Shown: piece by piece, positions 10,658 to 30,577 of the stretch
Position numbering within the stretch: position 1 is the stretch's first letter
How the letters are laid out: each line of letters opens with the position of its first letter
Assembly: GCA_023229865.1 (NCBI GenBank)
Contig: JALNYL010000005.1
Span: forward strand, 4,422 to 68,421
DNA: 64,000 nucleotides
From: Minisyncoccota bacterium
GTDB taxonomy: Bacteria > Patescibacteriota > Minisyncoccia > Phycocordibacterales > UBA1550
Reading direction: 5' to 3'
Made by a program: the position numbers and the translations under genes
The notes under the pieces: generated by a model
Databases searched by the model: none
Seen by the model: the letters and a program-made list of their open reading frames with translations, nothing else
Told to the model about the DNA's origin: nothing

Positions 10658-10659
10658 GT

Positions 10660-11400: not shown

Positions 11401-11405
11401 AAAAT

Positions 11406-12362: not shown

Positions 12363-13047
12363 TACGTATGATGGTATCGTTCTCTTTTTTTTGTAGGTCG
12401 TTTTTTGAACCGCTTAATGTTTTTCCGTCGTTGTTGAAAACACCTGAAAGGGTCTTTGTCTTTATTATCCTCACGTTTTTTTGTGCCGCGCGCGACCACC
12501 AGTCAAAGTCACCAGAGATCTTGAACGATTCATTGAATTCCCCGACGATACTAAATGTCTCCTTGGTGAACATAAAATGCGGACCTGCGTACATACCAAC
12601 TTTGAAAAGTTCGCGATCGTACTCAGCCGGATCAACGACCTTTATCATTGCAAGGATCTTGATGCCCCATACATAGATATATCTTTTATAGATGTACGGG
12701 AAATAAGTCGCTTGGAATCCCTTGCTAAGATTCGCGCTTCCTTCGATGAATGCTTTCGTAAAACGCAGGTCATCCACAGCCCAGAAGGTGATGTATTCAT
12801 AGAGACTTTCTTTGGTGCCCCTGTTCCAACTTGCATAAAGAGTTTCTCTGGGGACGGTGATAATTTTAAAGTTGAGGCCGGAGTTTCCTACGAGCATCCT
12901 TTCTTGATTTGAAAAATCGTTTGCGACCAAAATGTGTTCAAATTGGATATTTTGTTTTGCTAATCCATGATGAACCTTCTGGGCGCTTTTAAGGAACGCT
13001 GGAAGGTGTGTTTCTGATTTATACAAAGACGTGACGATGGAGATCAT
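12352..13047 (-). CDS. glycosyltransferase family 2-like
   Basis: N-terminal ISIVTSLYK, WAVDD DXD-like motif; 231 aa. Confidence 0.6.
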   Translation of the reverse strand: MISIVTSLYKSETHLPAFLKSAQKVHHGLAKQNIQFEHILVANDFSNQERMLVGNSGLNFKIITVPRETLYASWNRGTKESLYEYITFWAVDDLRFTKAFIEGSANLSKGFQATYFPYIYKRYIYVWGIKILAMIKVVDPAEYDRELFKVGMYAGPHFMFTKETFSIVGEFNESFKISGDFDWWSRAAQKNVRIIKTKTLSGVFNNDGKTLSGSKNDLQKKENDTIIRNVQ

Positions 13048-13053
13048 GTTGAA

Positions 13054-14265
13054 TTAAATAAGTTTTTTGATTTCGTTAATCACTGCTTCGGTGCTTATGT
13101 TACTCACACAGGGGGCAGGGCTCCCTGTGGTAAGTCCATTTGCGCAGGCGTAGGCGTCGTTGAGGCAGTCCATGTTTTTTACTGAAACAACGATGTTCTT
13201 TTCCGTATCTTGGGACGGGTAAAATTCTTTGAAATGACCAAGTCCTAATGGGCAAATCACGGTTGCTCCCACGGCCTCGGCTAAATGCGTCGGGCCGCTG
13301 TCGTTCCCAATATAAAATTTTGCCAATCGTATTATGCCCGCAGTGGAAAAGATGTTCGTTTTTGCTGTTAGGTTAAAGATGTGATCCATCTTGCTTTTGT
13401 CGACATGTTGTAGGATTCCCTCCGCTAAGTTTTTTTCCATTGCGGAGCCACAAATAACGACATCGAAATTGTGTTCAACGAGATGCTCTGCAATTTTTGC
13501 AAATTTGTCGACTGGCCATTTTGAAACAGCTCTTCCTGCGCCAGGGAAGATGACGACAAATGCTCCTTGGGCAATCCCGTATTCGGACAGTATCTTTCGA
13601 GCGCCAGCAATGTCACTGTCTTTTGAGGGGAAGGTTGTTGAGTAGTCGTCAAATGTTTTTCCCGCTAATTCTTCAATAAGATGTTTGTGTCGATAAAATT
13701 CATTTGAAATAGTTGTAGGGGTGCGTATCAACTTTGTGTACGGGTCCAAGAGAAAAATCCGACCTAGTTTTTCAACTTCATATCCCGCAAAAGATATTTT
13801 TTCTGTAGCTTGTGTTGCTCTTACGATAAAGTCGCTGATTTTTCTTCTGTAATATATTGGATTTATTACGGTATCAAAATTCATTTGGTAAAATTTCTTA
13901 GACAGAGCAAATCTGTAGAAAATATTTTTCGAGAATTTTTTTGCGTCAAAGAGAATGACATTGTCGACATTTTCTCCTTTGTATCGGTTGGCAATTTCGT
14001 AGTTGATTTTATTATCAACGAGAAGAGATATTTCATAACCAGGAAAGACTTCTCGGTATTTTAGTAATGACGGGAGGAAAATAATGAAATCGCCCAGCCC
14101 TTCAAGCTTGATAAGAAGTAATTTTTTCTTGGTATTTTGGTCTCTTCTTGTGAAGGGCAAAGTGGCCATTATCAAATTATTTACCAGTGTTCGGAAAAGA
14201 TTTATTGCAGAGTTCATGTTGTTGCGAGTGGGGAAGTGGTTGTTGATTAAAGCAAAGTATATCAT
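13054..14265 (-). CDS. glycosyltransferase family 9 (ADP-heptose:LPS heptosyltransferase-like)
   Basis: KLEGLGDFIIFLPSL and GNDSGPTHLAEAVGATVI motifs typical of GT9; alternative start at 14217. Confidence 0.75.
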   Translation of the reverse strand: MIYFALINNHFPTRNNMNSAINLFRTLVNNLIMATLPFTRRDQNTKKKLLLIKLEGLGDFIIFLPSLLKYREVFPGYEISLLVDNKINYEIANRYKGENVDNVILFDAKKFSKNIFYRFALSKKFYQMNFDTVINPIYYRRKISDFIVRATQATEKISFAGYEVEKLGRIFLLDPYTKLIRTPTTISNEFYRHKHLIEELAGKTFDDYSTTFPSKDSDIAGARKILSEYGIAQGAFVVIFPGAGRAVSKWPVDKFAKIAEHLVEHNFDVVICGSAMEKNLAEGILQHVDKSKMDHIFNLTAKTNIFSTAGIIRLAKFYIGNDSGPTHLAEAVGATVICPLGLGHFKEFYPSQDTEKNIVVSVKNMDCLNDAYACANGLTTGSPAPCVSNISTEAVINEIKKLI

Positions 14266-14373
14266 TTCTTGTTGTGCGGGAACAACTTAATCCCGCAACG
14301 CCGCAGCCCTGTACAAGAGCGTTAATATGTAGTATATTTGCGGGAGTTGTACTTTACCAATGAGGAGAAAAAA

Positions 14374-16215
14374 ATGAATGCACCCCAGCAGAGAATTCGG
14401 GTTTTGTTGGTTGCTCGATATTACATCATTGAGCCCCTCGGAATCCTCCATTTGATAGGGCTTGCTGATTCGATTGGTTGTGAAGTTGATGTGGAGCTTG
14501 TCCCCGGGAATGACTTTTCTGCTCTTTACAAAAAGGTAGAAGAGTGGAAACCGGATTTTGTTGGTTTCCAAATTTGGACAGGGTGGCATCTCCAGATTTT
14601 TGCGGCTTGTGATCATGTCCGCAACATGGGGACAAAGGTGATTGTCGGTGGCCCTCACGTCACGTACTTCACCCACGAATGTGCCAAGCATGCTGATTTT
14701 GTTGTTCGCGGTGACGGTTTCCGTAATTTCAGGCGCATCTTGCAGGGAGAACTTCTCCCTGGTATACATTTTGACGTCGAACAGCTGGCGGAGTCGTTCC
14801 CTATGCCTAATCGCAGTATCGTGTACAACAAGTACCCCGCATTACGCAATAGCCCCATTCGTAGCATAATTACATCTGTTGGTTGTCCCTTTACGTGTAG
14901 TTATTGCTACGCACCAGAATGGAACAGGATGTATGGTGGTTTCAGACACCGACAACGTTCGGTGGATGACATCATTCGCGAAGGGGTTGAAATCAGTACC
15001 AAGTGGGGAGCGGAGATGGTCTACATTCAAGATGACATCTTTGGCTTTGATAAGGTTTGGCTTGCTGATTTTGCAAAACGATGGAAGGAAGAAGTTAACC
15101 TTCCGTTTCATTGCCAAATCCGATTGGAGCTTACTCGTCATACTGCCGGAGATGAGAGGTTGGACCTCTTCAAACAGGCGGGGTGTACTGGTATTACGCT
15201 TGCTATTGAGTCAGGTGATCCGTTTCTAAGGGAGCATGTTCTTCACCGCGAAATGTCAGACGAACTTATTCTTGAGGGGTGTGCGAAGATTCGCTCCCGA
15301 GGGATGACGCTTCGTACAGAGCAGATTCTTGCGGTCCCCTTTAGTAATCTGGATACAGATCTTTCGACTCTACACCTTAACAACCTTGTTGCACCAGAAA
15401 TGGCTTGGACTTCGATCTTGGTGCCATATAGTGGCACTGAATTGGGTGGAATTGCCAATGCCTTTGGTTATTACAAAGGAGAAAACGACGATATTAAGGA
15501 GGTGTTTTTCGACAGAAGTGTCATGCGACATTCAAAAACCGCAAAGGGTGTCGTGGAAAAAGTTGTCGGTGAAATGGTTAGAGTGAATAAAACCATGGAG
15601 AAGGCACAGCAATATCGGGGTTCCCCCTTGCAACGCCTCGAAGCACGAGAGGTAGCACCGTTTGTCTCGGAAGTTTTTATTCGTGATGGACAAGGCTCGT
15701 CTTTCCCGGTGCTCCCGTCTCGCCAAAAGCCGCTCTGCACCATTGAGTTTTTGAACGATGAGGAGAACGATCGATATTCCAATCAAATCGTCATTCTTCA
15801 AAGGCTCTTTATGTGGTTTGCCGCTGTCCCAGAAGCACGCGAACTCGCCAAGAGATATATATCACTTGAGCAGGAAGAGTGGACGTGGGTGCGCCTTGGC
15901 GAGGTCGTCATGGAGCACTTCAAACTGCTCGGAAAGGAGCAAGACGCAGAAAGGTGGATAAATGAACTCGTTCAGGCATTCAGCTGTGATTCTCGAGATG
16001 AATTGCCAAGCGTTGTGAAGGATAATCCACTCTACTTCGTTTTCTTTCCTTCGAGCGCTGATTTTGCTAAGCATGTTGTTGCACTAAATGTAATCAACAT
16101 GAAGGCAGAGCCAGGACGTCAGTTTGACGAGCTCGGTGGGGTGGCGCGTAGATGGTTGTTTGATACTGCTCTTTATAAAATTGTTCCCGCAACAAAACCA
16201 ATTGCTTGCGATTGA
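14374..16215 (+). CDS. B12-binding domain radical SAM protein (class B radical SAM, putative C-methyltransferase)
   Basis: N-terminal cobalamin-binding Rossmann-like region, then CPFTCSYC CxxxCxxC radical SAM cluster motif; GGAG SD upstream. Confidence 0.8.
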   Translation: MNAPQQRIRVLLVARYYIIEPLGILHLIGLADSIGCEVDVELVPGNDFSALYKKVEEWKPDFVGFQIWTGWHLQIFAACDHVRNMGTKVIVGGPHVTYFTHECAKHADFVVRGDGFRNFRRILQGELLPGIHFDVEQLAESFPMPNRSIVYNKYPALRNSPIRSIITSVGCPFTCSYCYAPEWNRMYGGFRHRQRSVDDIIREGVEISTKWGAEMVYIQDDIFGFDKVWLADFAKRWKEEVNLPFHCQIRLELTRHTAGDERLDLFKQAGCTGITLAIESGDPFLREHVLHREMSDELILEGCAKIRSRGMTLRTEQILAVPFSNLDTDLSTLHLNNLVAPEMAWTSILVPYSGTELGGIANAFGYYKGENDDIKEVFFDRSVMRHSKTAKGVVEKVVGEMVRVNKTMEKAQQYRGSPLQRLEAREVAPFVSEVFIRDGQGSSFPVLPSRQKPLCTIEFLNDEENDRYSNQIVILQRLFMWFAAVPEARELAKRYISLEQEEWTWVRLGEVVMEHFKLLGKEQDAERWINELVQAFSCDSRDELPSVVKDNPLYFVFFPSSADFAKHVVALNVINMKAEPGRQFDELGGVARRWLFDTALYKIVPATKPIACD

Positions 16216-16257
16216 TGTTATGGGGAAACGCCGCTGAGTTATTTCAGCGGCGTTTTT

Positions 16258-16992
16258 TTATTTGATTATTTTCCTTAATATAACTTCGATTTGAAGCTTG
16301 GGAGCAAAGACAAGGATTTTAAATAACCAATTATTGATCTTTTTGTTCGTTATTATGTGGATGTTTTTTCCGTCAGTGTAAAAATGTAATCCAAATTTCG
16401 AGGCAAGGTTTCGAAGGGATTGTTCTGAATAAAAGGCGACGTGCTGTCCATGGTGAAATCCATAATAACCCCAAGCGTCAGGGTCGGGGATCTCATTGGG
16501 GGGAATGAGTTTTGTTGAAAAAAGGATGGTATTGGATATGGATAATATCTTTTTAATTTCCTCTACAGGGGCAGGAAAGTGTTCAAAACATTCAAAACAT
16601 GTGACTGCTTTTATTTCTTCATTATGGTATTCAAGTCCAGTTGCGAAAATACCCTCGGTGTATTGGTCCATCCAGTAGAATTTTAGACCATAGTCGTTCA
16701 TGAGTCGCGCAAACAATCCGTACCCACCTGCATAGTCGAGAAATTTATCTTTCGCGCTAAACAAGGTATAAAAAATTACCAGGGTGATTCTCGACATGAG
16801 GATGTTTCTGCCGACATACCCCGTATCTGATTTGTTGATCGAATTTTTGTATGCTTCGTCGAGCCAGTAAGGAGTCTCTGTTTGTATGAAGTGACAGTTT
16901 TTGCAGTGAAAATAATCGACATCATACTTTTCGAGTACTCTTTTTGTGAAAATTTTTTCTACTTCTTTGCCGCAAATGTTACATGTTTTCAT
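16258..16992 (-). CDS. SAM-dependent methyltransferase with N-terminal zinc ribbon (sugar C-methyltransferase-like)
   Basis: CNICGK...HCKNCHF zinc ribbon followed by MTase-fold region (LDYAGGYG). Confidence 0.6.
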   Translation of the reverse strand: MKTCNICGKEVEKIFTKRVLEKYDVDYFHCKNCHFIQTETPYWLDEAYKNSINKSDTGYVGRNILMSRITLVIFYTLFSAKDKFLDYAGGYGLFARLMNDYGLKFYWMDQYTEGIFATGLEYHNEEIKAVTCFECFEHFPAPVEEIKKILSISNTILFSTKLIPPNEIPDPDAWGYYGFHHGQHVAFYSEQSLRNLASKFGLHFYTDGKNIHIITNKKINNWLFKILVFAPKLQIEVILRKIIK

Positions 16993-17545
16993 GATGGGGA
17001 ATCATTTTTATTAATTTTGCAGGATTTCCGCCTACAATTGCATAATCTGGAACATTTTGCGTCACAACACTACCAGCTGCAACCACACTGTGTTTGCCGA
17101 TGGTTACCCCACCAAGAACGATTGCTCGAGTGCCAATCCAGGCACCTTCTTTGATGTGTATTGGTTTTTCAGTGATGCTTGCGTGGCGTTCTTCATTGAA
17201 GAAATTATAATCATGCCCTCGTGCAAGTAAGCACACTCCATGTCCAAAAAAAACATAATCATCGATAGTGATTTTGCCAACATTATTCCCTGCGTTGATG
17301 AGTGTGTCAACCAAGGAGATATGCGAACCAAGATATATATTGTGGTGCCCGCTAAATACTCGGAATCCTTTTTCAATATACACCTGAGAACCTTTGTGGG
17401 GGATCATCTTGAAGTGTTGTCTTTCTGAGATGCGATCCCTCTTTCTTATGATGATTTCAGTGTAATCCATGCCGTAATACCAGCCCCTAACAAAACGTGC
17501 TACGGACTTGATTTGCTTTTTTATTTCGTTTAGATATGCTTTCAT
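16979..17545 (-). CDS. hexapeptide-repeat (left-handed beta-helix) sugar O-acetyltransferase
   Basis: AWIGTRAIVLGGVTIGKHSVVAAGSVV hexapeptide repeats. Confidence 0.8.
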   Translation of the reverse strand: MKAYLNEIKKQIKSVARFVRGWYYGMDYTEIIIRKRDRISERQHFKMIPHKGSQVYIEKGFRVFSGHHNIYLGSHISLVDTLINAGNNVGKITIDDYVFFGHGVCLLARGHDYNFFNEERHASITEKPIHIKEGAWIGTRAIVLGGVTIGKHSVVAAGSVVTQNVPDYAIVGGNPAKLIKMIPHHENM

Positions 17546-17551
17546 TTTTTT

Positions 17552-18514
17552 TTAAATTTTTAATTTTAATTTTCTGTAAATGAGTCTTGTGAATTTACGT
17601 AATTTTAGCATATCTAGTATTTGTATGAGGAGTATTCGATAGTTAAAATTATCAACAAATGTATCTTTGAGAAGTGCGTACTCAATTTCGATATTAGGCG
17701 TCATCTCTCGTGGGTGCTTGAGGTTCTCGACAGAAATGAATTCCGTGTGCATGTTGTTGAAGGGAGATGCGGAGATGCTGTGCGTCCCGCTAATTCCGAT
17801 GTTGCTTACCAAGTTTCTTGGGGGGATAATGCAGAGCATGTTATTCGCAAGGCAAGAAAAAAACCACTGAACATCCCACGTGTTGATGCGTTTACTGTAG
17901 CCGAATTCAAACGAGTCGTTATAAAATGACGACACGTTTTTACTGCTAAATATTTTCTGAAGGCGGTGTTGTTTTTTAAAATTAGGCCAACTCTTCATTT
18001 CTATATCATATTTACTCCAAGCTCTCCTCCAAGTGGCCCAGCCCCATATGTAGATTGGTCGCACAAAATAGTATTCGTCTTTGTTTGGATTGATTTTCAC
18101 GAGAGTTTTTTCTTGCACAAAATTGTCTCCTGATATCATCCCCACGTGTTCGTTATCCTGATATTTTTTTAACATCGTTTCGCAAAAAGCAAAAAAAGAA
18201 GGATGGGGAAGGCAGTCGTCCTCTAAAATGATCCCTTGTTCGACGTTTTCAAAAAACCAAGTAATCGAGGAGCTGACAGCATTTTTGCAGCCCAGGTTTT
18301 TTTTCTCGGAACAATGTTTTAACCTCGCATTCCCAGTCGATATTTTTCACGATGCTTTTTGTTTCAGCACAAAGGACCTGATCGCCCGGGACATTATCTC
18401 GGGGGCCATCTGACGCGATAAAAAGCTGCTTTGGTCTTGCTTTTCGAATTTCTTCAAAGACTTTTGCCGTAGTGTCTGGCCTGTTGAATATCAAGAGAAG
18501 GATGGGGGTATCCA
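17552..18514 (-). pseudogene. glycosyltransferase (nucleotide-diphospho-sugar transferase fold) disrupted by a +1 frameshift in a T6/A6 homopolymer
   Basis: ORFs 18249..18608 and 17552..18175 are one reading frame interrupted at plus-strand aaaaaa 18251-18256; removing one base gives continuous ...QLLDYLVFENVEQGIILEDDCLPHPSFF... Confidence 0.65.
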
Positions 18515-18591
18515 TAATATAATTAGTGTGTCCTTGAATTATAGCATTTTTTGAAGACCATGCCTTTTGTTTTGTGCTATTATTGATTTTG

Positions 18592-19509
18592 ATGATTTCT
18601 TTCAGCAAACTAGGGAATTATGGGAGGTTGGGGAACCAGCTTTTCCAATATGCTTTTCTGAGAACTCAAGCAGAAAGACTTGGGGTGAAATTTTATTGTC
18701 CGACATGGGAGGGGGATAGTATATTCAACTTAGGGGACGAAGGCGCGCGTTGCGCCGAATTTGTTCCACGTACATACTACGAAGATCATTCCAATGGTTA
18801 CAACCTTGATGCCACTCAAATCCAAGATGGTACTGATATTGCAGGTTTCTTTCAGTCTGATAAATATTTTAAAAAGGGGGATGTGCATCGCTGGTTTTCA
18901 TTTAATGAATCATTGTTTGTCGCCGTTAACAAAAAATATTCGGACATAAATTTTTCAGAAAGTACTGGATTGCACGTACGTCTCGGAGACTATACGACAC
19001 CCCAGCTTGTTTTCTATGTTCCAAGACCAGAATTTTATAAAAAAGCACTCGAGCTGGTTGATCACAAAAGAAGTATCCTGGTTTTTTCTGACGATGTTGT
19101 TTTTGCAAAAAAATACTTAAAGGGGATTCCCGGGAACTTCGTTTATATGGAGAAGAACAAGGGCTATGAGGATCTATACTTGATGTCTAAATGCAGAGAT
19201 GTGGTAATTTCCTCCTCGAGTTTCAGTTGGTGGGCGGCGTTCCTGAATACCTATTCAGATAAAAAGGTTGTCATGCCCGCTTCTTGGTTTTTACCAGGAG
19301 GGAAGACTGCTAATAATGATATATTTGTTGAGGGTTGGATTCGACTGAGGGCGCACCGGTTTTACGATTATTACTATATCAAGTATCTTCCTAATATAAT
19401 CAGGGTATACAGTGGAAGAATATCTAAAAGCATCGATCTATTAAGAAGGGATGGGGTTGTGTCCGCGATGAATGAAATTAAAAAATTTGTTCTCAAAAGA
19501 CAACGATAG
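18592..19509 (+). CDS. glycosyltransferase family 11 (alpha-1,2-fucosyltransferase)
   Basis: GRLGNQLFQYA and HVRLGDY motifs. Confidence 0.8.
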   Translation: MISFSKLGNYGRLGNQLFQYAFLRTQAERLGVKFYCPTWEGDSIFNLGDEGARCAEFVPRTYYEDHSNGYNLDATQIQDGTDIAGFFQSDKYFKKGDVHRWFSFNESLFVAVNKKYSDINFSESTGLHVRLGDYTTPQLVFYVPRPEFYKKALELVDHKRSILVFSDDVVFAKKYLKGIPGNFVYMEKNKGYEDLYLMSKCRDVVISSSSFSWWAAFLNTYSDKKVVMPASWFLPGGKTANNDIFVEGWIRLRAHRFYDYYYIKYLPNIIRVYSGRISKSIDLLRRDGVVSAMNEIKKFVLKRQR

Positions 19510-19518: not shown

Positions 19519-20295
19519 TTATTTTTTAATGAACCAGAAGCAGCCACAAGCGTCGTTCTGCTTGTCTGATTCTTCTTTTGTTGCGTTCCTGATTATACCA
19601 ACCTCTCTGGCGTTGTCGGGAATCAAAGAAAACTCCTCTAGGTGAAGATCTGAAAAATATTTCATAATTTGAGCGTATGAATATTGTCGGTGAGCGTTAA
19701 AGATGATTTTTGGATCACCGCCGATAGGCACGACGAACAATAAGCTTCCGCCAGGAGCGAGTACTCTTTTGAGTTCTTGTATTGCTTTTAAATCTCCTTG
19801 CGGATCAACGGGGTCTCCGTATCGGCCTAGTCCTACATGTTCTACTGTGTGCATGCAAGAAAGTGACATTATTGAGTTGTCTTGAAACGGCATTGAAAGC
19901 AGGTCGCCACTTTTTGTCTCGAGATTGTCTAGTTTTATATCTGCGGGGCGGTAGTCATAAAATTTTATGGGAATAAAAGCAGAGATAAGCGTGCTGAACG
20001 GGAGAAACGAAGAGAAGTCAACATGATACTCTGGCTTTGTTTTTGCAAGAATTCTTGCTGCCCATGCCGGGTGGTAGGTATAGTGTGGTTCGATTTTTGT
20101 TACTGTTGTTCTGTCGAGTAGTTGAGGGGCCATCGAAGATATTTTGAGAGGGAATCGCCCGTCATTGTTTTTTGAAAATTTATACAGATCAAGAACAAAA
20201 TAAACAAAGTTAATCAGTTTTTTTATTTTGATATAGAAAAAAACCGAAAAAGGGATCGCGATAATGATTTTTTTTGTTCTATTACTTATGTTCAT
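19519..20295 (-). CDS. methyltransferase-like protein (DUF268-type, class I MTase fold)
   Basis: SCMHTVEHVGLGRYGD...LAPGGSLLFVVP; paralog of 22505..23254. Confidence 0.6.
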   Translation of the reverse strand: MNISNRTKKIIIAIPFSVFFYIKIKKLINFVYFVLDLYKFSKNNDGRFPLKISSMAPQLLDRTTVTKIEPHYTYHPAWAARILAKTKPEYHVDFSSFLPFSTLISAFIPIKFYDYRPADIKLDNLETKSGDLLSMPFQDNSIMSLSCMHTVEHVGLGRYGDPVDPQGDLKAIQELKRVLAPGGSLLFVVPIGGDPKIIFNAHRQYSYAQIMKYFSDLHLEEFSLIPDNAREVGIIRNATKEESDKQNDACGCFWFIKK

Positions 20296-21558
20296 TTATT
20301 TATTGATGACCTTGTAGTCTAATATCGATGCCATGACACCAAGATTTTGTCCGTTATAGGCTGCGGTTTTTGGATTATTGATATCTTGAATTTCGAAGCC
20401 GATGTATTGTCGTATGTCGAGTCTTTCAACAAAAACCTTGTCTACGGTTACGTCAAAATGGTAATGACCAACATTGAATAAAAATTTTGGTACAGACACA
20501 ATTACCTCGTAATCACCCTTCTTGAAATCGGATAATTTTTCCGCCTGATCAGAGATTGATGAAATAAGAACCACTTCCCCCTGATAAGAGAATTGCAAGG
20601 TGATGATTACTCCAGTAACGTCGTTATTCACCTCTAGGTTTAACTTTATCGAGAAGTCTTCGCTTATGGGGATGCGCGCTGCTGGAGTATTGTTTTTGTT
20701 GAGAATCGTTATTTTGGATACTTGTACGTCTTTCCCATGGTTGGTGTTAAATTCGCTGACAGCATTCAACCCCTTGGTGTCATTAAGGTAGTGGTCAACC
20801 ACCTTGTCTGTTGTGTCAAACATCACAATGTTTCCTTTTTCAAGAAGGATGCTTTTGTTGCAAAGTTGCTGTATCGCGTTTATATTGTGGCTCACAAAGA
20901 GAATTGTGCGACCCTTCTTTTCAGTGATATCCTGCATTTTCCCCATGCACTTTTTTTGAAATTCTGCGTCTCCAACAGCAAGCACTTCATCAACAATAAG
21001 AATATCTGGCTCCATGTGTGCTGCGACGGAAAACGCAAGTCGAACATACATACCAGAAGAGTAGTATTTTACGGGCGTATCCAAAAACTTTTCGATCTCT
21101 GCAAAGGCAACGATCTCGTCAAATTTACGCGCGATCTCACTTCGTTTCATTCCCAAAATTGCGCCGTTGAGAAAAATGTTTTCTCTGCCTGTTAATTCTG
21201 GATGAAATCCTGTCCCAACTTCAAGGAGTGATCCCACTGTCCCGCGAATCTTTATTTCTCCTGTTGTTGGTGGTGTAATTTGGGAAAGAATTTTAAGCAA
21301 GGTTGATTTTCCTGCGCCGTTTCTTCCAATAATACCGACAACTTCCCCTTTTTTAATAGTAAGATTGAGGTCTTTTAATGCCCAAAAGTCCTCCTGTTTT
21401 TCAAGTCCAGCGACTTGCTTGATTTTGTACTTCAAAAATTTGAAGGGGGCTTTGAGAACCCCTGCGAGAACGTCGCGCAATGCAACATACCGCCCACGTT
21501 CATGTGTGATTTTGTATTTTTTCCCAATGTTCTTTATTTCGATGATAGTGTCGGTCAT
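20296..21558 (-). CDS. wzt: polysaccharide ABC exporter ATP-binding protein Wzt with C-terminal glycan-binding extension
   Basis: GRNGAGKSTLLKIL Walker A, LSGG-like signature, Walker B ILIVDE; ~170-aa C-terminal beta-rich extension beyond the NBD. Confidence 0.9.
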   Translation of the reverse strand: MTDTIIEIKNIGKKYKITHERGRYVALRDVLAGVLKAPFKFLKYKIKQVAGLEKQEDFWALKDLNLTIKKGEVVGIIGRNGAGKSTLLKILSQITPPTTGEIKIRGTVGSLLEVGTGFHPELTGRENIFLNGAILGMKRSEIARKFDEIVAFAEIEKFLDTPVKYYSSGMYVRLAFSVAAHMEPDILIVDEVLAVGDAEFQKKCMGKMQDITEKKGRTILFVSHNINAIQQLCNKSILLEKGNIVMFDTTDKVVDHYLNDTKGLNAVSEFNTNHGKDVQVSKITILNKNNTPAARIPISEDFSIKLNLEVNNDVTGVIITLQFSYQGEVVLISSISDQAEKLSDFKKGDYEVIVSVPKFLFNVGHYHFDVTVDKVFVERLDIRQYIGFEIQDINNPKTAAYNGQNLGVMASILDYKVINK

Positions 21559-21564
21559 GTTGTG

Positions 21565-22428
21565 TTATATGGTGTCGGCGAAATGGCGCTCTGCCTTCTT
21601 GAAGTTTACAATACCAACAATAAGAATGATCGCACATACGATGAATGATATTGAGATGAGGAGCCAGTTGATGGGTGTGGTTCCAAGAAGTGCCGCGCGA
21701 GCGTTCTGGATTACCCCCGTCATGGGGTTGATTGCAAGTATCCATGAATACTTTTCGGCAACGCTTGCGGGGTAGATGACAGGGGTCACGAAAAGCAAGA
21801 TTTGAATAAAGAACGGTAAGACGTATCTAACGTCGCGATACTTTACATTGATTGCAGCGAGAATGAGTCCCCCTCCCACCGATATCATGAATGTGATGAC
21901 GAGAAGTAGGGGGAAGACGAGGATCCCAACAAGATTCGGCGTGTACCCATAATAGAGCATCATCCCGAAAAGAATCATCGCTGCGATAGTAAAGTCGACG
22001 AATTTTGTCATTACTGAAGAGAAGGGGAGAATAAGTCTCGGAAAGTAAACTTTGGTAACTATCGCTTGGTTGGCGATGAGTACATTACTGGTGTCAGCAA
22101 GAGATGATGAAAAAAACTGCCAAAATATCAAGCCGGTATAAACAAAGATTGGGTAGGGAACTCCGTTTGAAGGAACCTTAAGAAGAATACCGAAAAAGAT
22201 GCTAAAAATTACCATCGTGACGAACGGCTGGAATACTGCCCACATAATCCCAATGTATGTTTGTTTGTATCGAACCTTAATGTCTCTCCATGTAAAAAAA
22301 TAAAGAAGTTCACGATACTGCCACACCTCGCGCAGGTCGTCAAAGCTGAATACTTTTTTGGGCTTTATGATTGTTAGATTACTCATGTGGTACTTTGCAA
22401 TGGTAGCATTTTGCGAGCTTAATTTCAA
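21565..22428 (-). CDS. wzm: ABC-2 type polysaccharide exporter permease Wzm
   Basis: 287 aa, 6 predicted TM helices, ABC-2 family character. Confidence 0.85.
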   Translation of the reverse strand: MKLSSQNATIAKYHMSNLTIIKPKKVFSFDDLREVWQYRELLYFFTWRDIKVRYKQTYIGIMWAVFQPFVTMVIFSIFFGILLKVPSNGVPYPIFVYTGLIFWQFFSSSLADTSNVLIANQAIVTKVYFPRLILPFSSVMTKFVDFTIAAMILFGMMLYYGYTPNLVGILVFPLLLVITFMISVGGGLILAAINVKYRDVRYVLPFFIQILLFVTPVIYPASVAEKYSWILAINPMTGVIQNARAALLGTTPINWLLISISFIVCAIILIVGIVNFKKAERHFADTI

Positions 22429-22504
22429 AAGACCAAAATATAGGCCTATTTCACGGTGTTTTTCTTGATAACATTTGATTGCGTTGGTGTGTTATAATTC
22501 ACCT

Positions 22505-23254
22505 ATGTTCAATTTTTTACGCACCATAAAGAGGTATTTTTTTAGAGTAAGATCATACGCGCTTTTCCCATTCGTTGCGAGTAGTTTTTTTGCCTTTAAG
22601 GCAAAGGATAAGCAGCACAGATTCAGCACTTCGTTTTTCGATGTGTTCCCGTGTCTTTTTGAAAACATTCCTTACACAAGATTTGATACCCACTATATTT
22701 ATCACACGGGATGGGCTGCACGAAAGGTTGAGGAAATAGGAGCAAAGGAGCACGTTGATATTTCTTCCAGTTTGTATTTTTCTAGTATCGTGTCGGCTTT
22801 CAAACCGGTTCGCTTTTATGATTTTCGCCCTGCTAAATTGAATTTATCGAATTTAATTTCAAGTCCGGCAAATCTTTTGAACTTGCCATTTGAAACAAAC
22901 TCGATAGATTCTCTTTCTTGTATGCACACAGTAGAACACGTTGGGTTGGGGAGGTATGGAGACGATATTGAACCAGATGGGGACTTGCGCGCCGCGCAAG
23001 AATTGTCTCGTGTTGTCAGGTCTGGGGGAAGTTTGCTTTTTGTTGTTCCTGTTGGTAAACCAAGGATTCAGTTTAATGCCCATCGCGTGTATTCATATGA
23101 TATGGTCGTCACCATGTTCCCTGACCTTACTCTTAAGGAGTTCTCTCTCATCCCTGATGACGCCCTGGAAACTGGTATGATATACAATGCGACAAAAGAA
23201 ATCGCTGACGCACAGGTGTATGGATGTGGATGTTTTTTGTTTACCAAAAAGTAG
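22505..23254 (+). CDS. methyltransferase-like protein (DUF268-type), paralog of 19519..20295
   Basis: near-identical motif block SCMHTVEHVGLGRYGDDIEPDGDL...SGGSLLFVVP; TTG at 22475 alternative start. Confidence 0.6.
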   Translation: MFNFLRTIKRYFFRVRSYALFPFVASSFFAFKAKDKQHRFSTSFFDVFPCLFENIPYTRFDTHYIYHTGWAARKVEEIGAKEHVDISSSLYFSSIVSAFKPVRFYDFRPAKLNLSNLISSPANLLNLPFETNSIDSLSCMHTVEHVGLGRYGDDIEPDGDLRAAQELSRVVRSGGSLLFVVPVGKPRIQFNAHRVYSYDMVVTMFPDLTLKEFSLIPDDALETGMIYNATKEIADAQVYGCGCFLFTKK

Positions 23255-23260: not shown

Positions 23261-24115
23261 ATGATTATAATAAAATTACAAGGAGGTCTTGGAAATCAAC
23301 TTTTTCAGTATGCGCTCGGGAAGACAATCGAAAAAACATACAACAAAGAGGTTGCATACGACATCTCTTCGTTTGAAGGGGATAAAAAAGTGACTCCCCG
23401 GTCGTTTCTTCTGGATAAATTCAAGACTAAATTAAAAATAGCGAATAATGTCGAGATCCGTGAGGTAAAAGAATCACTTTTATATCTTGCAAAAAAGATT
23501 TTGAACAAATTCTTTTTTAAAAAATACCATATTGCTTATGAAGCAGATTTCTTGGATTCGATCAAAGATTCGGACTCCATGTATTTGGAGGGATATTGGC
23601 AGAGCGTTCGTTATGTAGAGCCGTGTATTATTGATTTGAGGGAGGAAATTGTCTTGGTTGATGGTTCGAATGAGCGGCTTGAGGGGGCGGTAGGGGGCGC
23701 CATGCAAGGTGAGTCAGTTGCGGTACATGTCCGAAGAGGGGACTATGTGACTGCGGGGACTGATCTAAGTGTTCTTGATATTTCGTATTATAAAATGGCA
23801 AAAGAATTTCTTTGTGAAAAGTTAAAGAACCCTCATTTTTATGTTTTTACCGATGATGCTATGTGGGTGAAGGAACAGTTTACTTTTTTACCCAAAGGAA
23901 ATACCACCTATGTTTCTGAGCTTGGATTGCGGGACTATGAGGAACTCATTTTGATGACAACGTGCAAAAATGCAGTCATTGCGAACTCGTCGTTCTCTTG
24001 GTGGGGAGCTATGTTGCGTAACGAAAAGGGGCTTACTCTCTGTCCAAAAGACTGGAAGAATGCATTTCTTAAAAACGATGAAAATCTGTGCCCAGATGAC
24101 TGGATCAGAATCTAG
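23261..24115 (+). CDS. glycosyltransferase family 11 (alpha-1,2-fucosyltransferase), second copy
   Basis: GGLGNQLFQYA and HVRRGDY motifs. Confidence 0.8.
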   Translation: MIIIKLQGGLGNQLFQYALGKTIEKTYNKEVAYDISSFEGDKKVTPRSFLLDKFKTKLKIANNVEIREVKESLLYLAKKILNKFFFKKYHIAYEADFLDSIKDSDSMYLEGYWQSVRYVEPCIIDLREEIVLVDGSNERLEGAVGGAMQGESVAVHVRRGDYVTAGTDLSVLDISYYKMAKEFLCEKLKNPHFYVFTDDAMWVKEQFTFLPKGNTTYVSELGLRDYEELILMTTCKNAVIANSSFSWWGAMLRNEKGLTLCPKDWKNAFLKNDENLCPDDWIRI

Positions 24116-24119: not shown

Positions 24120-24890
24120 TCATCCTTTAATGCTAAGGCGGACAAAACGCAAGAGTAGATATATGCAAAATGTCGGATGATAGAGGAGGTGAAGATTGAA
24201 TCCTTCTTGTGCAATTAAGGATAGCATCTCAAGTTGTTTTTTACGCGGGCGAGTGCGGAAATTGAGGCCAGAAGCTTCGTCGTACCCGTCGGTGAGAGTG
24301 CTGTTGTGGGGAGAATAGAACATGTGTGTTTTGAGTCCGATTTGAAAAAAGAAGATCCACTCTTCCGCCTGCTTGATGCGTGTCGAAAATCGCACGTTCG
24401 TAACGATTTTTGCGTTTATACAGTGCGTCGCATCACCTTCACCTTTTTTAGTAATGAGATAGTCCCATGCGTAAGAATATGTGGTGTCGGGCTTTGGAAA
24501 TTTTGTTGCTGACTTACCGCTTGCGTATGCGCGGTTTGTAACAAACCATGTTTCCTTTGGGTGTGCCAAGATAAGGTCGTGAAGTGTTGCGAGTGCGTCT
24601 GGGGTGAGGTAGTCGTCATCATCTAAAAAGATGACCCAGTCCGAATCCCTTACGGCAATATCAAGTGCTCGGTTGCGGGAGAAATTTACTCCTGAGTTTT
24701 CCTCGTTTTTCAAATAGGTGATACGACGGTCGGCGATATCTTGTTCAAGGGGTGCATAGCTTATGTCTTCAGGGGAGTCGTTGACGATGATCATTCTCCA
24801 TTCGGCATAGGTCTGCCCAAGAACCGACTCGATTGCGCGAGTAAGCTTGTCGGCGCGTTTGTGGGTAGGGGTGATGATGGTGAATCTCAT
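24120..24890 (-). CDS. glycosyltransferase family 2
   Basis: FTIITPTHKR..., FLDDDD DXD motif; start chosen at MRFTIITP. Confidence 0.75.
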   Translation of the reverse strand: MRFTIITPTHKRADKLTRAIESVLGQTYAEWRMIIVNDSPEDISYAPLEQDIADRRITYLKNEENSGVNFSRNRALDIAVRDSDWVIFLDDDDYLTPDALATLHDLILAHPKETWFVTNRAYASGKSATKFPKPDTTYSYAWDYLITKKGEGDATHCINAKIVTNVRFSTRIKQAEEWIFFFQIGLKTHMFYSPHNSTLTDGYDEASGLNFRTRPRKKQLEMLSLIAQEGFNLHLLYHPTFCIYLLLRFVRLSIKG

Positions 24891-24901
24891 GATTGGGAAG
24901 T

Positions 24902-25810
24902 TTATTTTTGGGGTAAGCAAAGGAGGTCGCACTGAGCTTTTTTGTTGTTGGAGAACTCAGAAAGAAAATCTTCCTTCGATACTACTTGCTTCATGTAATT
25001 TTCGACATCGTATAAATTGTAGCCAAGGTTCTGCAATAGGGAAATAATCTTATTGCCATGATCCCTTCCTTTTTCAAAATACAATTTACCAGAAAATTCC
25101 ATAACGATGACTGGTTTATGGATGGCGAGAACCTTTTGTATACCAGCTAGGACTTCGTATTCGTACCCCTCAACATCCATCTTGATCATATCGACACGCT
25201 GAAAGTCTTTCAATTCATCGTCGCCTCTTTTGATGTTGATGACAATCTCCTCGTTTTCTTTCCCGTGGGGTCCAACAATAGAAGAGCCACCGACATTGTT
25301 TGTTTCAACATAGAGAGTCTCTGTTTTTGGTGCTTCTCCAAGGGCTATGTTGCGTGCGTCAATGATGTCTTCAAAGTGGTTGATCCTTGCGCTGTCGAGG
25401 AGCTGGTTATAGACACGGGGGATTGGTTCGAATGAGGATACTTTCCCTTCAGTGCCCACGACTGAAGCTGCGAACATGGTATGTTGTCCAATGTTTGCCC
25501 CAATATCTACAAAGACATCTCCTTTTTTGAGATGCTGCGCAATAAGGTCAAGGATAAACGGTTCGTAGACTCCGTATAGATAGATATGCTTATCAATGAA
25601 CCCATTTTGGGGAGAAATGAACAAGGAAAAAGCATGCCCGTGATGAGACACGTCTACTGGTCGATATGTTGTAAAGCTTTTTAAGCGAACTGCATCAATG
25701 GTGTCCACAAGTTTGATGAATATTTTTTGCCAAAGACCAAGAACCACCACAAAAAGTGTTTTTGGTAAGATTTTTTTTAGTGTGTACTTGATTTTGCTTC
25801 TGTTGATCAT
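24902..25810 (-). CDS. FkbM-family methyltransferase
   Basis: VFVDIGANIGQHT motif, MTase_21-like. Confidence 0.7.
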   Translation of the reverse strand: MINRSKIKYTLKKILPKTLFVVVLGLWQKIFIKLVDTIDAVRLKSFTTYRPVDVSHHGHAFSLFISPQNGFIDKHIYLYGVYEPFILDLIAQHLKKGDVFVDIGANIGQHTMFAASVVGTEGKVSSFEPIPRVYNQLLDSARINHFEDIIDARNIALGEAPKTETLYVETNNVGGSSIVGPHGKENEEIVINIKRGDDELKDFQRVDMIKMDVEGYEYEVLAGIQKVLAIHKPVIVMEFSGKLYFEKGRDHGNKIISLLQNLGYNLYDVENYMKQVVSKEDFLSEFSNNKKAQCDLLCLPQK

Positions 25811-25814: not shown

Positions 25815-26513
25815 TTATATAAAACCTAAAAGTTTTTTTAAAAACTTTTTAATGCCAATTATTTCAACCATTTTTTTCCCAAAACTATAAAGGCCTATTT
25901 TTTTGAAGAATTTGTTAAGTGGATGACCCCATGAATAGTGCCAGAGATGAACTCCGAGGACTTCGGGTCCAAGGTTTTGTCCGTGGAATTCTTTGATGTG
26001 GTCGCTATCGAATGGGTAAAAAGTTTTTGGTGGGCAAACGACAATATTTGATTTGTCTGTGTAAGTTTCGAAAGCTTGCGAGAGGGCGCGGGGGATAGTG
26101 ATGAGTTCGCTAGGGTTCTCGTCATAGAACTTTTTACACGTTTCAACGAAGGGGTGATGTGCTGTGGTGCCAATCATGCCGGCGCTAATAATTCCAGGGG
26201 CCTCTTCTCCGAGGACACATGAGTGGCGCGTGAGTGGTCCCAGAGACTGAAGGAGGAGCATATCAGTATCAAGGTAGAAACCACCATGTTCGGTAAGGAT
26301 GTGGAGTCGCGCGTAATCTGCAACAAACGCCCACTTTTTTTCAGCATACATCCGTTTTGCAAAAGGGAAGTCGTTGATGGGGAAGTTGTCCTCGTTCCAT
26401 TCCTTGATTTCAAAATCTGGGCACATTTTTTTCCAGCTTTCAATACAATCAAGAATTTCGGGAGTTTTTGGATTATTGCCGAACCAACAATAATGGATGA
26501 TTTTTGGGATCAT
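25815..26513 (-). CDS. glycosyltransferase family 32-like (DXD-containing sugar transferase)
   Basis: IPKIIHYCWFG and YLDTDM motifs; start trimmed to avoid overlap with fcl. Confidence 0.7.
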   Translation of the reverse strand: MIPKIIHYCWFGNNPKTPEILDCIESWKKMCPDFEIKEWNEDNFPINDFPFAKRMYAEKKWAFVADYARLHILTEHGGFYLDTDMLLLQSLGPLTRHSCVLGEEAPGIISAGMIGTTAHHPFVETCKKFYDENPSELITIPRALSQAFETYTDKSNIVVCPPKTFYPFDSDHIKEFHGQNLGPEVLGVHLWHYSWGHPLNKFFKKIGLYSFGKKMVEIIGIKKFLKKLLGFI

Positions 26514-26556
26514 GATGTTCGTAAGTTTTAGTATACCATCAACACACTGAGATCCA

Positions 26557-27486
26557 TTATTTATAATTTTCTTTGAACCACTCGTATGTTGATATGATGC
26601 CTTCGTCGAGGGGTATGGTGTGCTTCCAACCAAGATTGTGAAGTTTTGACACATCAAGTAGTTTTCTTGGGGTGCCGTCGGGCTTGGTTGAATCCCAGAC
26701 TATCTCGCCTTCATAGCCGACCACCTCTTTAATCTTTTCCGCGAGCTCTTTAATGGTGACGTCTTCTCCTGTGCCGACGTTTACAATTTCAGAATCGTTG
26801 TAATTCTCTACAAGGAAGATGCTTGCTGCAGCAAGGTCGTCAACGTGAAGAAACTCGCGCATAGCGCTCCCTGTGCCCCAGAGGGTAATAGTAGGGCTCC
26901 CTGAAGCCTTGGCTTCGTGGAATTTACGAATCATTGCAGGCATAACGTGCGAATTTTCAAGGTCAAAATTGTCATTTGTGCCATAGAGGTTTGTTGGCAT
27001 GAGTGAAATAAAGTTAGTGCCATATTGTTCATTGTAAGATTGGCACATAATAATGCCTGCAATCTTTGCGATGGCGTAGGCTTTATTGGAAGGTTCGAGT
27101 GCGCTTGTGAGAAGGTACTCCTCTTTGATCGGCTGTGGACAAAGTTTTGGATAAATGCACGAGCTGCCGAGGAACAACAATTTCTTTATCTTGTTTTCAT
27201 AAGCGCTTTGAATAATGTTTGTTTGTATAACAAGGTTGTGATGGATGAAATCAGCGGGGTAGGTTTTGTTGGCCATAATCCCGCCCACTTTTGCAGCGGC
27301 GAGAAAAACATACTCAGGTTTTTCTTCCGCAAAGAAGTTAGTGACTGCTTGTTGATTGGTGAGATCAAGCTCTTTGTGTGTTTTTAGAACAAGATTGGTA
27401 AAACCCGCTTTTTCTAGCGCTCGTACAATAGCAGATCCTACGAGTCCACGATGTCCAGCGACAAAAATTTTTGAATTCTTTTCCAT
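26557..27486 (-). CDS. fcl: GDP-L-fucose synthase (GDP-4-keto-6-deoxymannose 3,5-epimerase/4-reductase)
   Basis: [14 protein letters not shown]..., YxxxK SDR; operonic with gmd. Confidence 0.9.
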
Positions 27487-27494
27487 GTTATAAA

Positions 27495-27947
27495 TTATTT
27501 AGATTTTGTAAAACCTGCCAAAACAAGAAACTTTTTCACATAAGGATGCCAGGTGTCGTCAATATGAGTATACCATTGATATTCTTCATTTTGTGTATCA
27601 AGAGCTACGGTGTCGCCATCGTCTTTAGAATTAGCGAGAAAGACAACGTTTATTGTATGTGTGGAGTCATCAAATGGACCGTCGGGGAACATCGTTTCGT
27701 CTACGCCAAGGATCTTTTCAATACTTATTTCAATTCCCAATTCCTCCTGCGCCTTTCTTTTTGCTGCATCTTCGAGCCCCTCACCCTTAAATATTCTTCC
27801 TCCTGGGAAAAACCATTGCCCCTGAGCGGGCTTGTTGTTTCGTTTTGCGAGTAAGAAGGAATTATCCCTCACGACAACAACATCGACGCAGACAATAGGG
27901 AGGACTGCGTGAATCTTTTGGTAGAGTTCGGTGGGGATGTGATTCAT
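27495..27947 (-). CDS. gmm: GDP-mannose mannosyl hydrolase-like Nudix protein
   Basis: Nudix box [25 protein letters not shown]; location between gmd and fcl. Confidence 0.75.
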
Positions 27948-27963
27948 TTAGGGGCGTCTAACT

Positions 27964-29046
27964 TTATTCGTAATGTTTTTCAATGGTAAATCCACCTTTG
28001 GTGAGGTGTAGATCTTTCTTTGCTTCTGCGAGGTCAGTCGCAACCATTTCTTTTACGAGACCTTCAAATTTAATCTCTGCCTCCCACCCAAGTTTTTTTC
28101 TCGCTTTTGATGGGTCTCCAAGGAGTGATTCAACTTCAGTCGGACGGAAATAGCGAGGGTCTACCTCAATAATTGTTTTCCCGGTAGTTTTGTCGATGCC
28201 GATTTCATTAACACCCTCTCCTTTCCACTCAAGCTCAATACCAAGCTCTTTGAAGACGGCGTCACAAAAAACGCGCACGGAATATTGTTCGCCCGTTGCA
28301 ATCACAAAATCTTCTGGGGTCTCCACTTGGAGCATGAGATACATTGCGTTCACGTAATCTTTTGCATGGCCCCAGTCGCGTTTCGCATTGAGATTACCAA
28401 GAAATAATTTCTCTTGGAGACCTAGAGAGATTCGTGCTGCTGCACGGGTGATCTTTTTAGTAACGAACGTTTCGCCACGACGAGGGGACTCATGGTTGAA
28501 GAGAATTCCTGACACTGCAAATATACCATAGGCTTCGCGATAGTTTTTGGTAATCCAATACGCATACACCTTTGCGGCGCCGTAGGGACTGCGTGGGTAA
28601 AAAGGAGTTTCCTCACTTTGGGGCGGAGGAGTTGCTCCAAACATTTCTGAGGTTGATGCTTGGTAGAATCTCGTTTTTTTCTCAAGGCCAAGGAGACGGA
28701 TTGCTTCAAGGATGCGGAGCGTGCCGAGCGCGTCTGAGTTACCCGTGTATTCAGGGACCTCAAAAGATACCTTCACGTGACTCTGTGCGGCGAGATTATA
28801 AATCTCGTCGGGTTGAACTTCTTTGATGATGCGAATGAGGTTGGTTGAGTCGGTGAGGTCTCCATAGTGAAGAAAGAGTCGTTTTCCTGACTCGTGCGGA
28901 TCTTGATAGATGTGATCGATTCTTCCTGTGTTAAAACTACTTGCGCGACGAATCAGCCCGTGGACCTCGTACCCCTTTTCAAGGAGGAGTTCTGCAAGGT
29001 ATGAACCATCTTGCCCGGTAATTCCTGTTATAAGTGCTTTTTTCAT
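27964..29046 (-). CDS. gmd: GDP-mannose 4,6-dehydratase
   Basis: [27 protein letters not shown]... canonical Gmd N-terminus. Confidence 0.95.
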
Positions 29047-29141
29047 ATAAAGGAATGTTACACTATTTTTACCTGATTTGGTAGCGTTTATTAGGGAAAT
29101 TGTGGTACGATAAAAACAAACAGAACTTCTTGGGGAATTCT

Positions 29142-30557: not shown

Positions 30558-30577
30558 ACATTTCTAAATTTAACGGA

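Follow-up and report, generated by a model that had tools for sequence, protein, structure and literature searches.

The export of capped glycans through ATP-binding cassette (ABC) transporters whose ATPase, Wzt, bears a carbohydrate-binding domain (CBD) is a well-understood process in a few Gram-negative models. In the E. coli O8/O9a and Klebsiella O3/O5/O7 systems, a methyl-containing cap halts the growth of the chain and licenses its export via the CBD-bearing Wzt (PMC9445017; PMC11231755), and the CBD of Aquifex binds a 3-O-methylated terminal sugar (PMC9445017). The terminators of these systems, WbdD and ORF6-O7, are of large size and combine a methyltransferase domain of the canonical GxGxG type with a coiled-coil ruler and, in most cases, a kinase domain (PMC3482155; PMC11231755), the ruler being present in the terminator of every complex resolved (PMC11231755). 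The S-layer glycan locus of Geobacillus stearothermophilus NRS 2004/3a has the gene order wzm-wzt-wsaE, and its 2-O-methyl cap has been proposed to be read by Wzt (PMC2943079). There, the N-terminal methyltransferase domain of WsaE caps the S-layer rhamnan and two glycosyltransferase (GT) domains of the same protein polymerise it, and in Gram-positive S-layer glycosylation a Wzy_C-family transferase acts as final ligase, with tetratricopeptide repeats (TPR) in WsfB (PMC2943079). In this study, we report on the interval 19519-23254 of a 64,000-nucleotide stretch of DNA from a Minisyncoccota bacterium (contig JALNYL010000005.1; the whole stretch is hereafter the window), which holds four genes: wzt, the permease gene wzm, and two paralogs, A and B, of the family DUF268 (PF03269).

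We favour, with moderate confidence, the reading that this locus belongs to a pathway for a capped, ABC-transporter-dependent, fucose-containing and multiply methylated glycan, in which the DUF268 proteins A and B methylate the lipid-linked glycan. Its export logic is that of the textbook systems and its link to DUF268 is new. What is novel here is the presence in a Patescibacterium of two ancient DUF268 paralogs with different conserved partners; a full-text literature search revealed no paper naming both Patescibacteria and Wzt. The four genes, and the two domains of Wzt, are placed in the window as follows.

19519-20295, minus strand: DUF268 paralog A, last gene of wzm-wzt-A (258 aa; PF03269, 56.7 bits)
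20296-21558, minus strand: wzt, whole gene (420 aa; ABC_tran and Wzt_C)
20785-21558, minus strand: nucleotide-binding domain (NBD) of Wzt, aa 1-258 (PF00005, E 1.9e-23)
20296-20784, minus strand: predicted C-terminal CBD of Wzt, aa 259-420, plus the stop codon (PF14524 Wzt_C, 30.4 bits)
21565-22428, minus strand: wzm, ABC-2 permease (PF01061, E 3.5e-15; NF050109 galactan_ABC_perm, E 2.5e-23)
22475-23254, plus strand: open reading frame (ORF) of DUF268 paralog B, with its start at the ATG at 22505 as in homologs (249 aa; PF03269, 54.9 bits)

For wzm, the ATG at 22386 is a likelier start and gives a protein of 273 aa, matching its relatives. The initial annotation of this DNA had described wzm-wzt as bracketed by a pair of paralogous genes in inverted orientation; all genes lie as it placed them, and A and B are identical at 125 of 240 residues (52%, E 2e-87). 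Since A begins with an ATG immediately after the stop codon of wzt (0-nt spacer) and wzm ends 6 nt ahead of wzt, wzm-wzt-A is taken as a single compact operon. Operon calls in this work rest on spacers of 0-9 nt and not on the promoter and terminator scan of the region 18-26 kb, in which sites were no more frequent than in shuffled sequence.

The evidence for cap recognition comes from Wzt. Its NBD ends near residue 258, leaving an extension of about 162 aa, close to the ~170 aa that the initial annotation had estimated and had attributed to a carbohydrate-binding module. The Wzt_C match of 30.4 bits is exactly the Pfam cut-off. The top PDB matches of the protein are Wzt, TarH and TagH, the best in sequence being the full-length Wzt of A. 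aeolicus (8dku/7k2t, E 5e-68), in an alignment that extends into the CBD. The AlphaFold2 model of residues 256-420, built with 51 homologs, is a confident beta-sandwich made almost entirely of beta-strand (pLDDT 87.7, pTM 0.82), so that the extension is neither disordered nor of an unrelated fold, the two outcomes that had been set beforehand as speaking against the proposal. In a Foldseek search of the PDB with this model, ranks 1 to 17 were all Wzt CBDs. The first was that of Aquifex bound to 3-O-methyl-D-mannose (8dky; E 4e-9, TM 0.72/0.82), and others were Aquifex 6o14, Klebsiella/Raoultella O12 5hno/5hnp and E. coli O9a 2r5o; the matches after rank 17 were lipid-binding beta-sandwiches, about 100-fold weaker. 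On these models, the extension is almost certainly a genuine CBD. With respect to 22 other Wzt, the NBD was 54-80% identical, with 65-80% for other Patescibacteria and Bacteroidota, and the CBD only 14-49%; a conserved NBD beside a divergent CBD is the pattern expected of a specificity-determining domain. A metagenome scan gave at least two short loci whose matches fall on NBD patterns, so the CBD family was seen there only via NBD-linked matches, and the CBD on its own gave no matches in a word-index search.

The second line of evidence is the gene that follows wzt. Eleven Wzt homologs of Patescibacteria, picked only for their long contigs, were sampled. Directly 3' of wzt, five had a methyltransferase gene (two FkbM, one TylF/Methyltransf_24, one RMNT_CmcI and, in P0191, one DUF268), four a gene for a protein without Pfam match (three of ~300 aa and one of 164 aa), one a transketolase subunit and one a GT2. 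This recurrence of non-homologous methyltransferases in one operon slot is the best comparative support for capping, and it applies to A. Patescibacteria have a conserved Wzy_C-wzm-wzt(CBD) scaffold that is repeatedly followed by a small methyltransferase of unrelated families. Loci L082-L091 share the longer scaffold SecA-MurB-Wzy_C/TPR-wzm-wzt. In addition, a small HTH_17 gene was observed one to three genes 5' of wzm in five loci (L083, L085, L087, L090 and the P0191 contig).

Each DUF268 paralog is flanked on its outer side by a GT11 gene, GT11_L at A and GT11_R at B. The neighbours of the four genes are listed below.

18574-19509, plus strand: GT11_L, of the GT11 (alpha-1,2-fucosyltransferase) family (PF01531, E 1.4e-20)
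22429-22504, no strand: divergent intergenic region between wzm and DUF268-B (sequence read directly)
23261-24115, plus strand: GT11_R, GT11-family glycosyltransferase (PF01531, E 2.8e-32)
24120-24932, minus strand: GT2 glycosyltransferase (PF00535, E 2.2e-24)
24902-25810, minus strand: FkbM-family methyltransferase, RfbT-like (PF05050, E 3.6e-22; TIGR01444, E 1.1e-29)
25815-26657, minus strand: GT32-type (DXD, Gly_transf_sug) glycosyltransferase (PF04488, E 5.8e-15)

GT11_L is convergent with A, with 9 nt between the two stop codons, GT11_R starts 6 nt 3' of B, and the two GT11 proteins are only 28% identical. The sequence TGTTATAAT at 22489-22507 holds an extended -10-like element that ends 6 nt ahead of the DUF268-B ATG at 22505, a position that would suggest a leaderless or near-leaderless transcript of B. 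The GT32 ORF, as listed, has a TTG start and overlaps the fcl-like gene at 26557-27486 (minus strand) by about 100 nt; an internal Met of the MIPKIIHYCWFG motif is the more plausible true start.

The association with GT11 extends far beyond the window. We compared 79 DUF268 loci on one-genome-per-species contigs, which include Patescibacteria, Bacteroidota, Gammaproteobacteria, Geomonas, Leptospirales and Armatimonadales. A GT11 gene lies within 10 kb of DUF268 in 55 of them, and in 53 of the 63 outside the narrow B clade. When the 78 DUF268 genes with enough downstream sequence are considered, GT11 stands on the same strand directly 3' (≤150 bp, often overlapping) in 26 and within 2 kb in 47; in the B clade, the gene directly 3' of DUF268 is usually a Wzy_C ligase. 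The order wzm-wzt-DUF268 is found in four loci (L037, L052, L059 and L074), with gaps of -18 to 22 nt. A single ORF of 849 aa with the order GT2-DUF268-GT2 was observed in a Patescibacteria metagenome-assembled genome (MAG; JAMCZE010000001.1, locus L057, 9077-11626, plus strand), its domains covering residues ~1-250, ~298-532 and ~547-800, respectively, with a 4-nt overlap with the start of wzm-wzt. All 13 Wzt proteins found near DUF268 have a length of 404-435 aa, and therefore have the extension.

In the pathway that we favour, the GT2, GT4, GT9, GT11 and GT32 enzymes of the cluster would assemble the polymer on a lipid carrier on the cytoplasmic side. Its growth would be stopped by a modification of the terminus, probably O-methylation of the terminal sugar (possibly fucose), which the CBD would read. 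Wzm-Wzt would export the chain, most likely requiring recognition of the terminal cap by the CBD, as suggested by the genuine CBD on Wzt and by analogy to E. coli O8/O9a, Klebsiella O12 and Aquifex, and a Wzy_C-TPR protein encoded in the same cluster would transfer the exported glycan to its acceptor. Both DUF268 proteins are most likely O-methyltransferases of the lipid-linked glycan, and paralog A would be a better candidate than B for the cap-forming, chain-terminating methyltransferase, because it abuts wzt and fills the slot held elsewhere by FkbM, TylF, CmcI or DUF268 methyltransferases. As a conserved ortholog of its lineage in a two-gene unit with GT11, B would be the likeliest to methylate the fucose (or fucosylated residue) installed by the adjacent enzyme. 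In this regard, A is put forward as a plausible but tentative candidate for the cap-forming enzyme, and fucose is proposed as the acceptor of DUF268 with the same reserve.

The alternative that survives best is that the CBD reads a cap made by the FkbM protein at 24902-25810, or by another enzyme of the cluster, and that both DUF268 proteins decorate internal or side-chain sugars, so that their position would be incidental. The FkbM gene, whose presence nearby the initial annotation had already reported, scores well above the cut-offs of both families (79.7 bits against 22.7 for PF05050 and 103.7 against 37.7 for TIGR01444), and it has a weak match to V_cholerae_RfbT (PF05575, E 3.7e-5). In V. 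cholerae O1, RfbT (WbeT) is a small, stand-alone, ruler-less methyltransferase acting on the terminal perosamine of an ABC-transporter-dependent O antigen; its methylation sets the serotype and is not essential for export. The closest relative of the window with genomic context, locus L092 (Wzt 71% identical), reads from left to right Wzy_C, GT11 and DUF268 on one strand, GT32-FkbM-GT2-wzm-wzt on the other, and GT11 again on the first. There, FkbM is the methyltransferase of the wzm-wzt operon, the lone DUF268 lies with GT11 and Wzy_C on the opposite strand, and A is absent, with no gene between wzt and GT11. By this co-operonic position, the RfbT-like FkbM is an equally good candidate for the cap methyltransferase, and FkbM genes also directly follow wzt in two of the eleven sampled relatives. 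Furthermore, far more of the 79 DUF268 loci have a GT11 (55) than a genuine Wzt (only 13) within 10 kb, and the type of CBD does not follow DUF268. Against this alternative, A abuts wzt translationally, DUF268 directly follows wzt in P0191, L037, L052, L059 and L074, and in L057 it is fused between GT2 modules beside wzm-wzt; in the window, the oppositely oriented B-GT11 pair separates FkbM from wzm. Taking both sides into account, we consider it rather doubtful that the DUF268 proteins only decorate the chain, and it is possible, although somewhat unlikely, that the RfbT-like FkbM is the enzyme that forms the cap.

Apart from the evidence from L092 and the prevalence of the GT11 link, other observations weigh against a cap made by DUF268 and read by Wzt. 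The Trp362 that forms the methyl lid in Aquifex stands opposite a conserved Glu in the window Wzt, in a segment aligned with low confidence. When a Wzt neighbours DUF268 in another genome, its CBD is only 14-18% identical to that of the window, and thus there is no DUF268-type CBD. The idea that the type of CBD follows the family of the neighbouring methyltransferase was likewise not supported by this comparison of CBD identities, which is biased in that part of the Wzt set (the P series) was picked for overall similarity to the window Wzt. All nine wzt-linked DUF268 sequences group with A in a neighbour-joining tree; the split has a bootstrap of 15% only, so that separate A-type (wzt-linked) and B-type (GT11-linked) subfamilies are not claimed. 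The cluster encodes at least four other methyltransferase candidates besides the DUF268 paralogs, and the window ORFs that were scanned include no initiating phosphoglycosyl transferase. In L004, L006, L013 and L016, the B-clade DUF268 gene lies between genes for a class-V aminotransferase, an Fe/Mn superoxide dismutase and ClpB; this is outside any obvious glycan cluster and odd for a glycan modifier. The capped-polysaccharide architecture proposed in the initial annotation consequently stands in part: the CBD and the methyltransferase genes after wzt (5/11) uphold it, while the bracketing by paralogs is not conserved and the link to GT11 is the stronger one.

Some properties of the DUF268 proteins themselves have to be counted on the same side, and they raise the question of their activity. 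We know of no DUF268 member, bacterial or nematode, that has been biochemically characterised. Both paralogs exceed the PF03269 cut-off of 25, although the match spans only profile positions 61-134 of 176, and both have weaker matches to Methyltransf_11 that exceed its own cut-off and cover the half that follows motif I. The core motif SxxEHxGLGRYGD is present, and CMHTVEHVGLGRYGD is invariant or nearly so. The family comprises 4774 clusters at E≤1e-5, and its alignments have a mean column identity of 69-70%, with many invariant His, Tyr and Arg residues. The AlphaFold2 model of A (pLDDT 86.6) has a Rossmann-type core with a beta1-alphaA-beta2 layout, and a seven-stranded, Rossmann-like class-I methyltransferase fold fits its order of secondary-structure elements. 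Its only long helix is N-terminal (residues 16-42) and may, on this model, associate with the membrane. A structure search of the PDB with the model gave 559 matches at E≤1e-3, and the 50 of these that were listed are all methyltransferases except SpnF, a cyclase of methyltransferase fold. The top matches are S-adenosylmethionine (SAM) methyltransferases (E about 1e-7 to 1e-8, TM about 0.45-0.5) and include sugar and natural-product O- and N-methyltransferases such as AtmM, RebM and NodS. The methyltransferase fold that had been assigned to the paralogs from the sequence is thus borne out.

The lack of an intact SAM-binding site had been set beforehand as another outcome that would speak against the proposal. 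The site expected to bind SAM is unusual: the fold is present, as is an acidic residue where beta2 ends, and the canonical glycine loop is absent. No Gly of a glycine-rich motif I (E/DxGxGxG) follows beta1 in any of 53 aligned DUF268 sequences, the loop reading HVD-[FI]-S-S-x-L-x-F-S. An invariant Asp, D114 (FYD), closes the predicted beta2 strand (110-114), where class-I methyltransferases bind ribose, and from its position in the model it may be the ribose contact. The equivalence of the SAM loop was drawn from predicted secondary structure alone, as hhalign of the DUF268 profile with the two canonical methyltransferases of the window could not align motif I. Sequence searches of the PDB, with a single sequence or a profile, found no usable DUF268 homolog; the single-sequence search at E≤1 gave only a marginal match to LahSB (E 0.55), and no WbdD. 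Neither A nor B has a kinase domain or a coiled-coil ruler, and the lack of the latter adds to the points against a terminator. The initial annotation had suggested an alignment of the paralogs with WbdD-like terminators: without GxGxG, kinase or coiled coil, and with no sequence match to WbdD, they are not terminators of that type.

It could be argued from these data that the DUF268 proteins are not active SAM methyltransferases and that they are another enzyme, or a scaffold of the glycan assembly complex, which kept the Rossmann fold and lost the glycine loop. The lack of motif-I Gly in 53/53 sequences, the lack of sequence matches to any solved methyltransferase, the cyclase SpnF among the fold matches and the modest TM-scores to methyltransferases would agree with this. 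On the other hand, the Methyltransf_11 matches above cut-off, the invariant acidic residue at the beta2 end and the high column identity, which includes many invariant polar residues of the kind found in active sites, argue against it, as does the placement of PF03269 as a whole in the methyltransferase and Rossmann superfamily, which we take as general knowledge. It is therefore very unlikely that DUF268 is inactive in this sense, and the family is probably one of active glycan methyltransferases.

The paralogs are old. The orthologs of B across Patescibacteria are 64-82% identical to it and the relatives of A up to 63%; B belongs to a 17-member clade with 92% bootstrap from which A is excluded, and loci L038 and L049 likewise hold one DUF268 copy from each side of the tree. 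Hence, the reading of the pair as a recent inverted duplication in situ, or as an artefact of the assembly, without biological meaning, which the inverted orientation of A and B about 2.2 kb apart and a sole inverted DNA match (a 103-nt core at 71% identity) might suggest, is effectively refuted by their low identity (52% in protein, roughly 57% in nucleotides), by their separate closer relatives, the tree and the two loci just mentioned, and by flanking genes that are not duplicated, the GT11 pair being so divergent. The DUF268 of L092 is the ortholog of B (73% identical to B, 52% to A), the GT11 directly after its wzt is the ortholog of GT11_L (59% identical), and the GT2 directly 5' of its wzm is the ortholog of the window GT2 at 24120-24932. 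With respect to L092, the gene orders suggest that the window genome gained A between wzt and GT11_L and moved the B-GT11 pair to between GT2 and wzm. The mirror layout is not a conserved architecture, and we regard it as functionless in itself, the outcome of a lineage-specific juxtaposition of two old paralogs.

The interval studied makes up the export core of a surface-glycan cluster of ~25 kb, at about 8.5-33.3 kb of the window. Its other parts are the following.

8530-18610, no strand: left half of the cluster (Pfam and NCBIfam scans)
26557-31306, both strands: GDP-fucose and GDP-mannose supply block (translations; gmd, fcl and manC named from reading of the translation)
26557-27486, minus strand: fcl-like epimerase/reductase (translation)
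27495-27947, minus strand: NUDIX (Pfam, E 6.6e-21)
27964-29046, minus strand: gmd (translation)
29100-30557, plus strand: manC-like (translation)
30578-31306, plus strand: PMM-like HAD (Pfam PMM/Hydrolase_3)
31343-33310, plus strand: Wzy_C (O-antigen-ligase family) membrane protein with C-terminal TPR (PF04932, E 2.5e-20, and TPR)

The left half holds genes for an epimerase, GT4, Methyltransf_25, GT2, a GT2-like protein and GT9, together with a B12-binding radical-SAM enzyme, Methyltransf_23, a hexapeptide acyltransferase and a disrupted GT-A gene. The radical-SAM enzyme (14338-16215, plus strand; 625 aa) matches HpnJ, AprD4 and P- or C-methyltransferases weakly and may be a sugar C-methylase or dehydratase. 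The GT-A-type gene (17552-18610, minus strand), with a DxD motif (...ILEDDCLP...), is broken by in-frame stops into fragments, two ORFs of 207 and 119 aa neither of which has a Pfam match, and represents either a pseudogene or the result of an error in sequencing or assembly. The Wzy_C-TPR protein would act outside the cytoplasm on the exported glycan, as a putative ligase or O-oligosaccharyltransferase. To the right of the cluster lie MurB and SecA, as in the Patescibacteria scaffold SecA-MurB-Wzy_C/TPR-wzm-wzt-variable genes, which is otherwise conserved and is interrupted here by an IS200-like Y1 transposase gene between the Wzy_C-TPR gene and MurB (34070-34744, plus strand; PF01797, E 2.2e-15). 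Just left of the cluster, a gene for a TrwB/TraG-like coupling ATPase (4263-6224, plus strand) is followed by one for a surface protein with Lamin-tail and PKD domains (5956-7776, plus strand). From 10 to 36 kb, a stretch that spans the cluster, the guanine plus cytosine fraction is 0.39-0.46, against 0.48-0.50 over 1-8 kb, and it is 0.41-0.50 further right; a lower value is typical of horizontally exchanged glycan loci.

With regard to the host, the Wzt is identical to an NCBI protein labelled as from a 'Candidatus Pacebacteria' MAG, and the best DUF268 and Wzt relatives are from Patescibacteria, Paceibacterota and Gracilibacteria. Patescibacteria are not known to have an outer membrane or lipopolysaccharide (LPS), so the product is less likely to be an LPS O antigen than a glycan linked to the wall, a lipid or a protein. 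In ultra-small episymbiotic bacteria, contact with the host is probably mediated by surface glycans, and the results bear on the way in which these are made. In addition, the linkage of DUF268 with GT11 in several bacterial phyla provides a first concrete functional hypothesis for this family, the O-methylation of fucosylated glycans.

Among the known systems, the WzmWzt of Aquifex aeolicus (7k2t, 8dku, 8dky, 6o14) is the nearest, sharing the order NBD, hinge and jelly-roll CBD and giving the best match in both sequence and fold. It differs in that its CBD is only about 16-18% identical to that of the window, where Trp362 is apparently replaced by Glu (with low confidence), and in that the window host is a Patescibacterium whose glycan is probably based on fucose and not on rhamnose or mannose. 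The E. coli O8/O9a and Klebsiella O3/O5/O7 systems also have a CBD-bearing Wzt, and the E. coli O9a CBD (2r5o) is among the fold matches. Unlike their large, ruler-bearing terminators, of which WbdD and ORF6-O7 are the examples, the candidate of the window is a small protein of ~250 aa with a glycine-free motif I in place of GxGxG, no kinase and no ruler. Closer in layout is Geobacillus NRS 2004/3a (WsaB), a non-LPS cell with a tight wzm-wzt-methyltransferase order, comparable to wzm-wzt-DUF268A and the Wzy_C-TPR protein of the window, and the GT2-DUF268-GT2 fusion of L057 resembles the polymerase-terminator architecture of WsaE. However, the methyltransferase domain of WsaE belongs to another family, its polymer is a rhamnan, and no S-layer protein or acceptor was identified at the window locus. 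The likeness to V. cholerae RfbT, seen in the weak PF05575 match, is that of the FkbM protein and not of the DUF268 paralogs.

A literature search on DUF268 returned mostly false prefix matches (DUF2683, DUF2686), the relevant match being work on C. elegans. In this nematode, DUF268 genes occur in glycogene clusters, a set that also holds GT11 alpha-1,2-fucosyltransferase homologs (PMC7614267). It also makes 2-O-methyl-fucose, and the methyltransferase responsible has not yet been identified (PMC7614267). The Caenorhabditis proteins, founders of PF03269, differ from those of the window in being predicted Golgi type-II membrane proteins. They belong to the same Pfam family, and the GT11 genes of their glycogene clusters parallel the bacterial DUF268-GT11 pairing. 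It may thus be speculated, although we consider it unlikely as a whole, that DUF268 proteins are glycan (fucose) O-methyltransferases common to bacteria and nematodes, that they form with GT11 a module which adds fucose and then methylates it, and that in Patescibacteria a second copy was recruited 3' of wzm-wzt as a ruler-less terminator making the cap read by the CBD. If this were true, the worm DUF268 genes would encode the long-sought 2-O-methyl-fucose methyltransferases.

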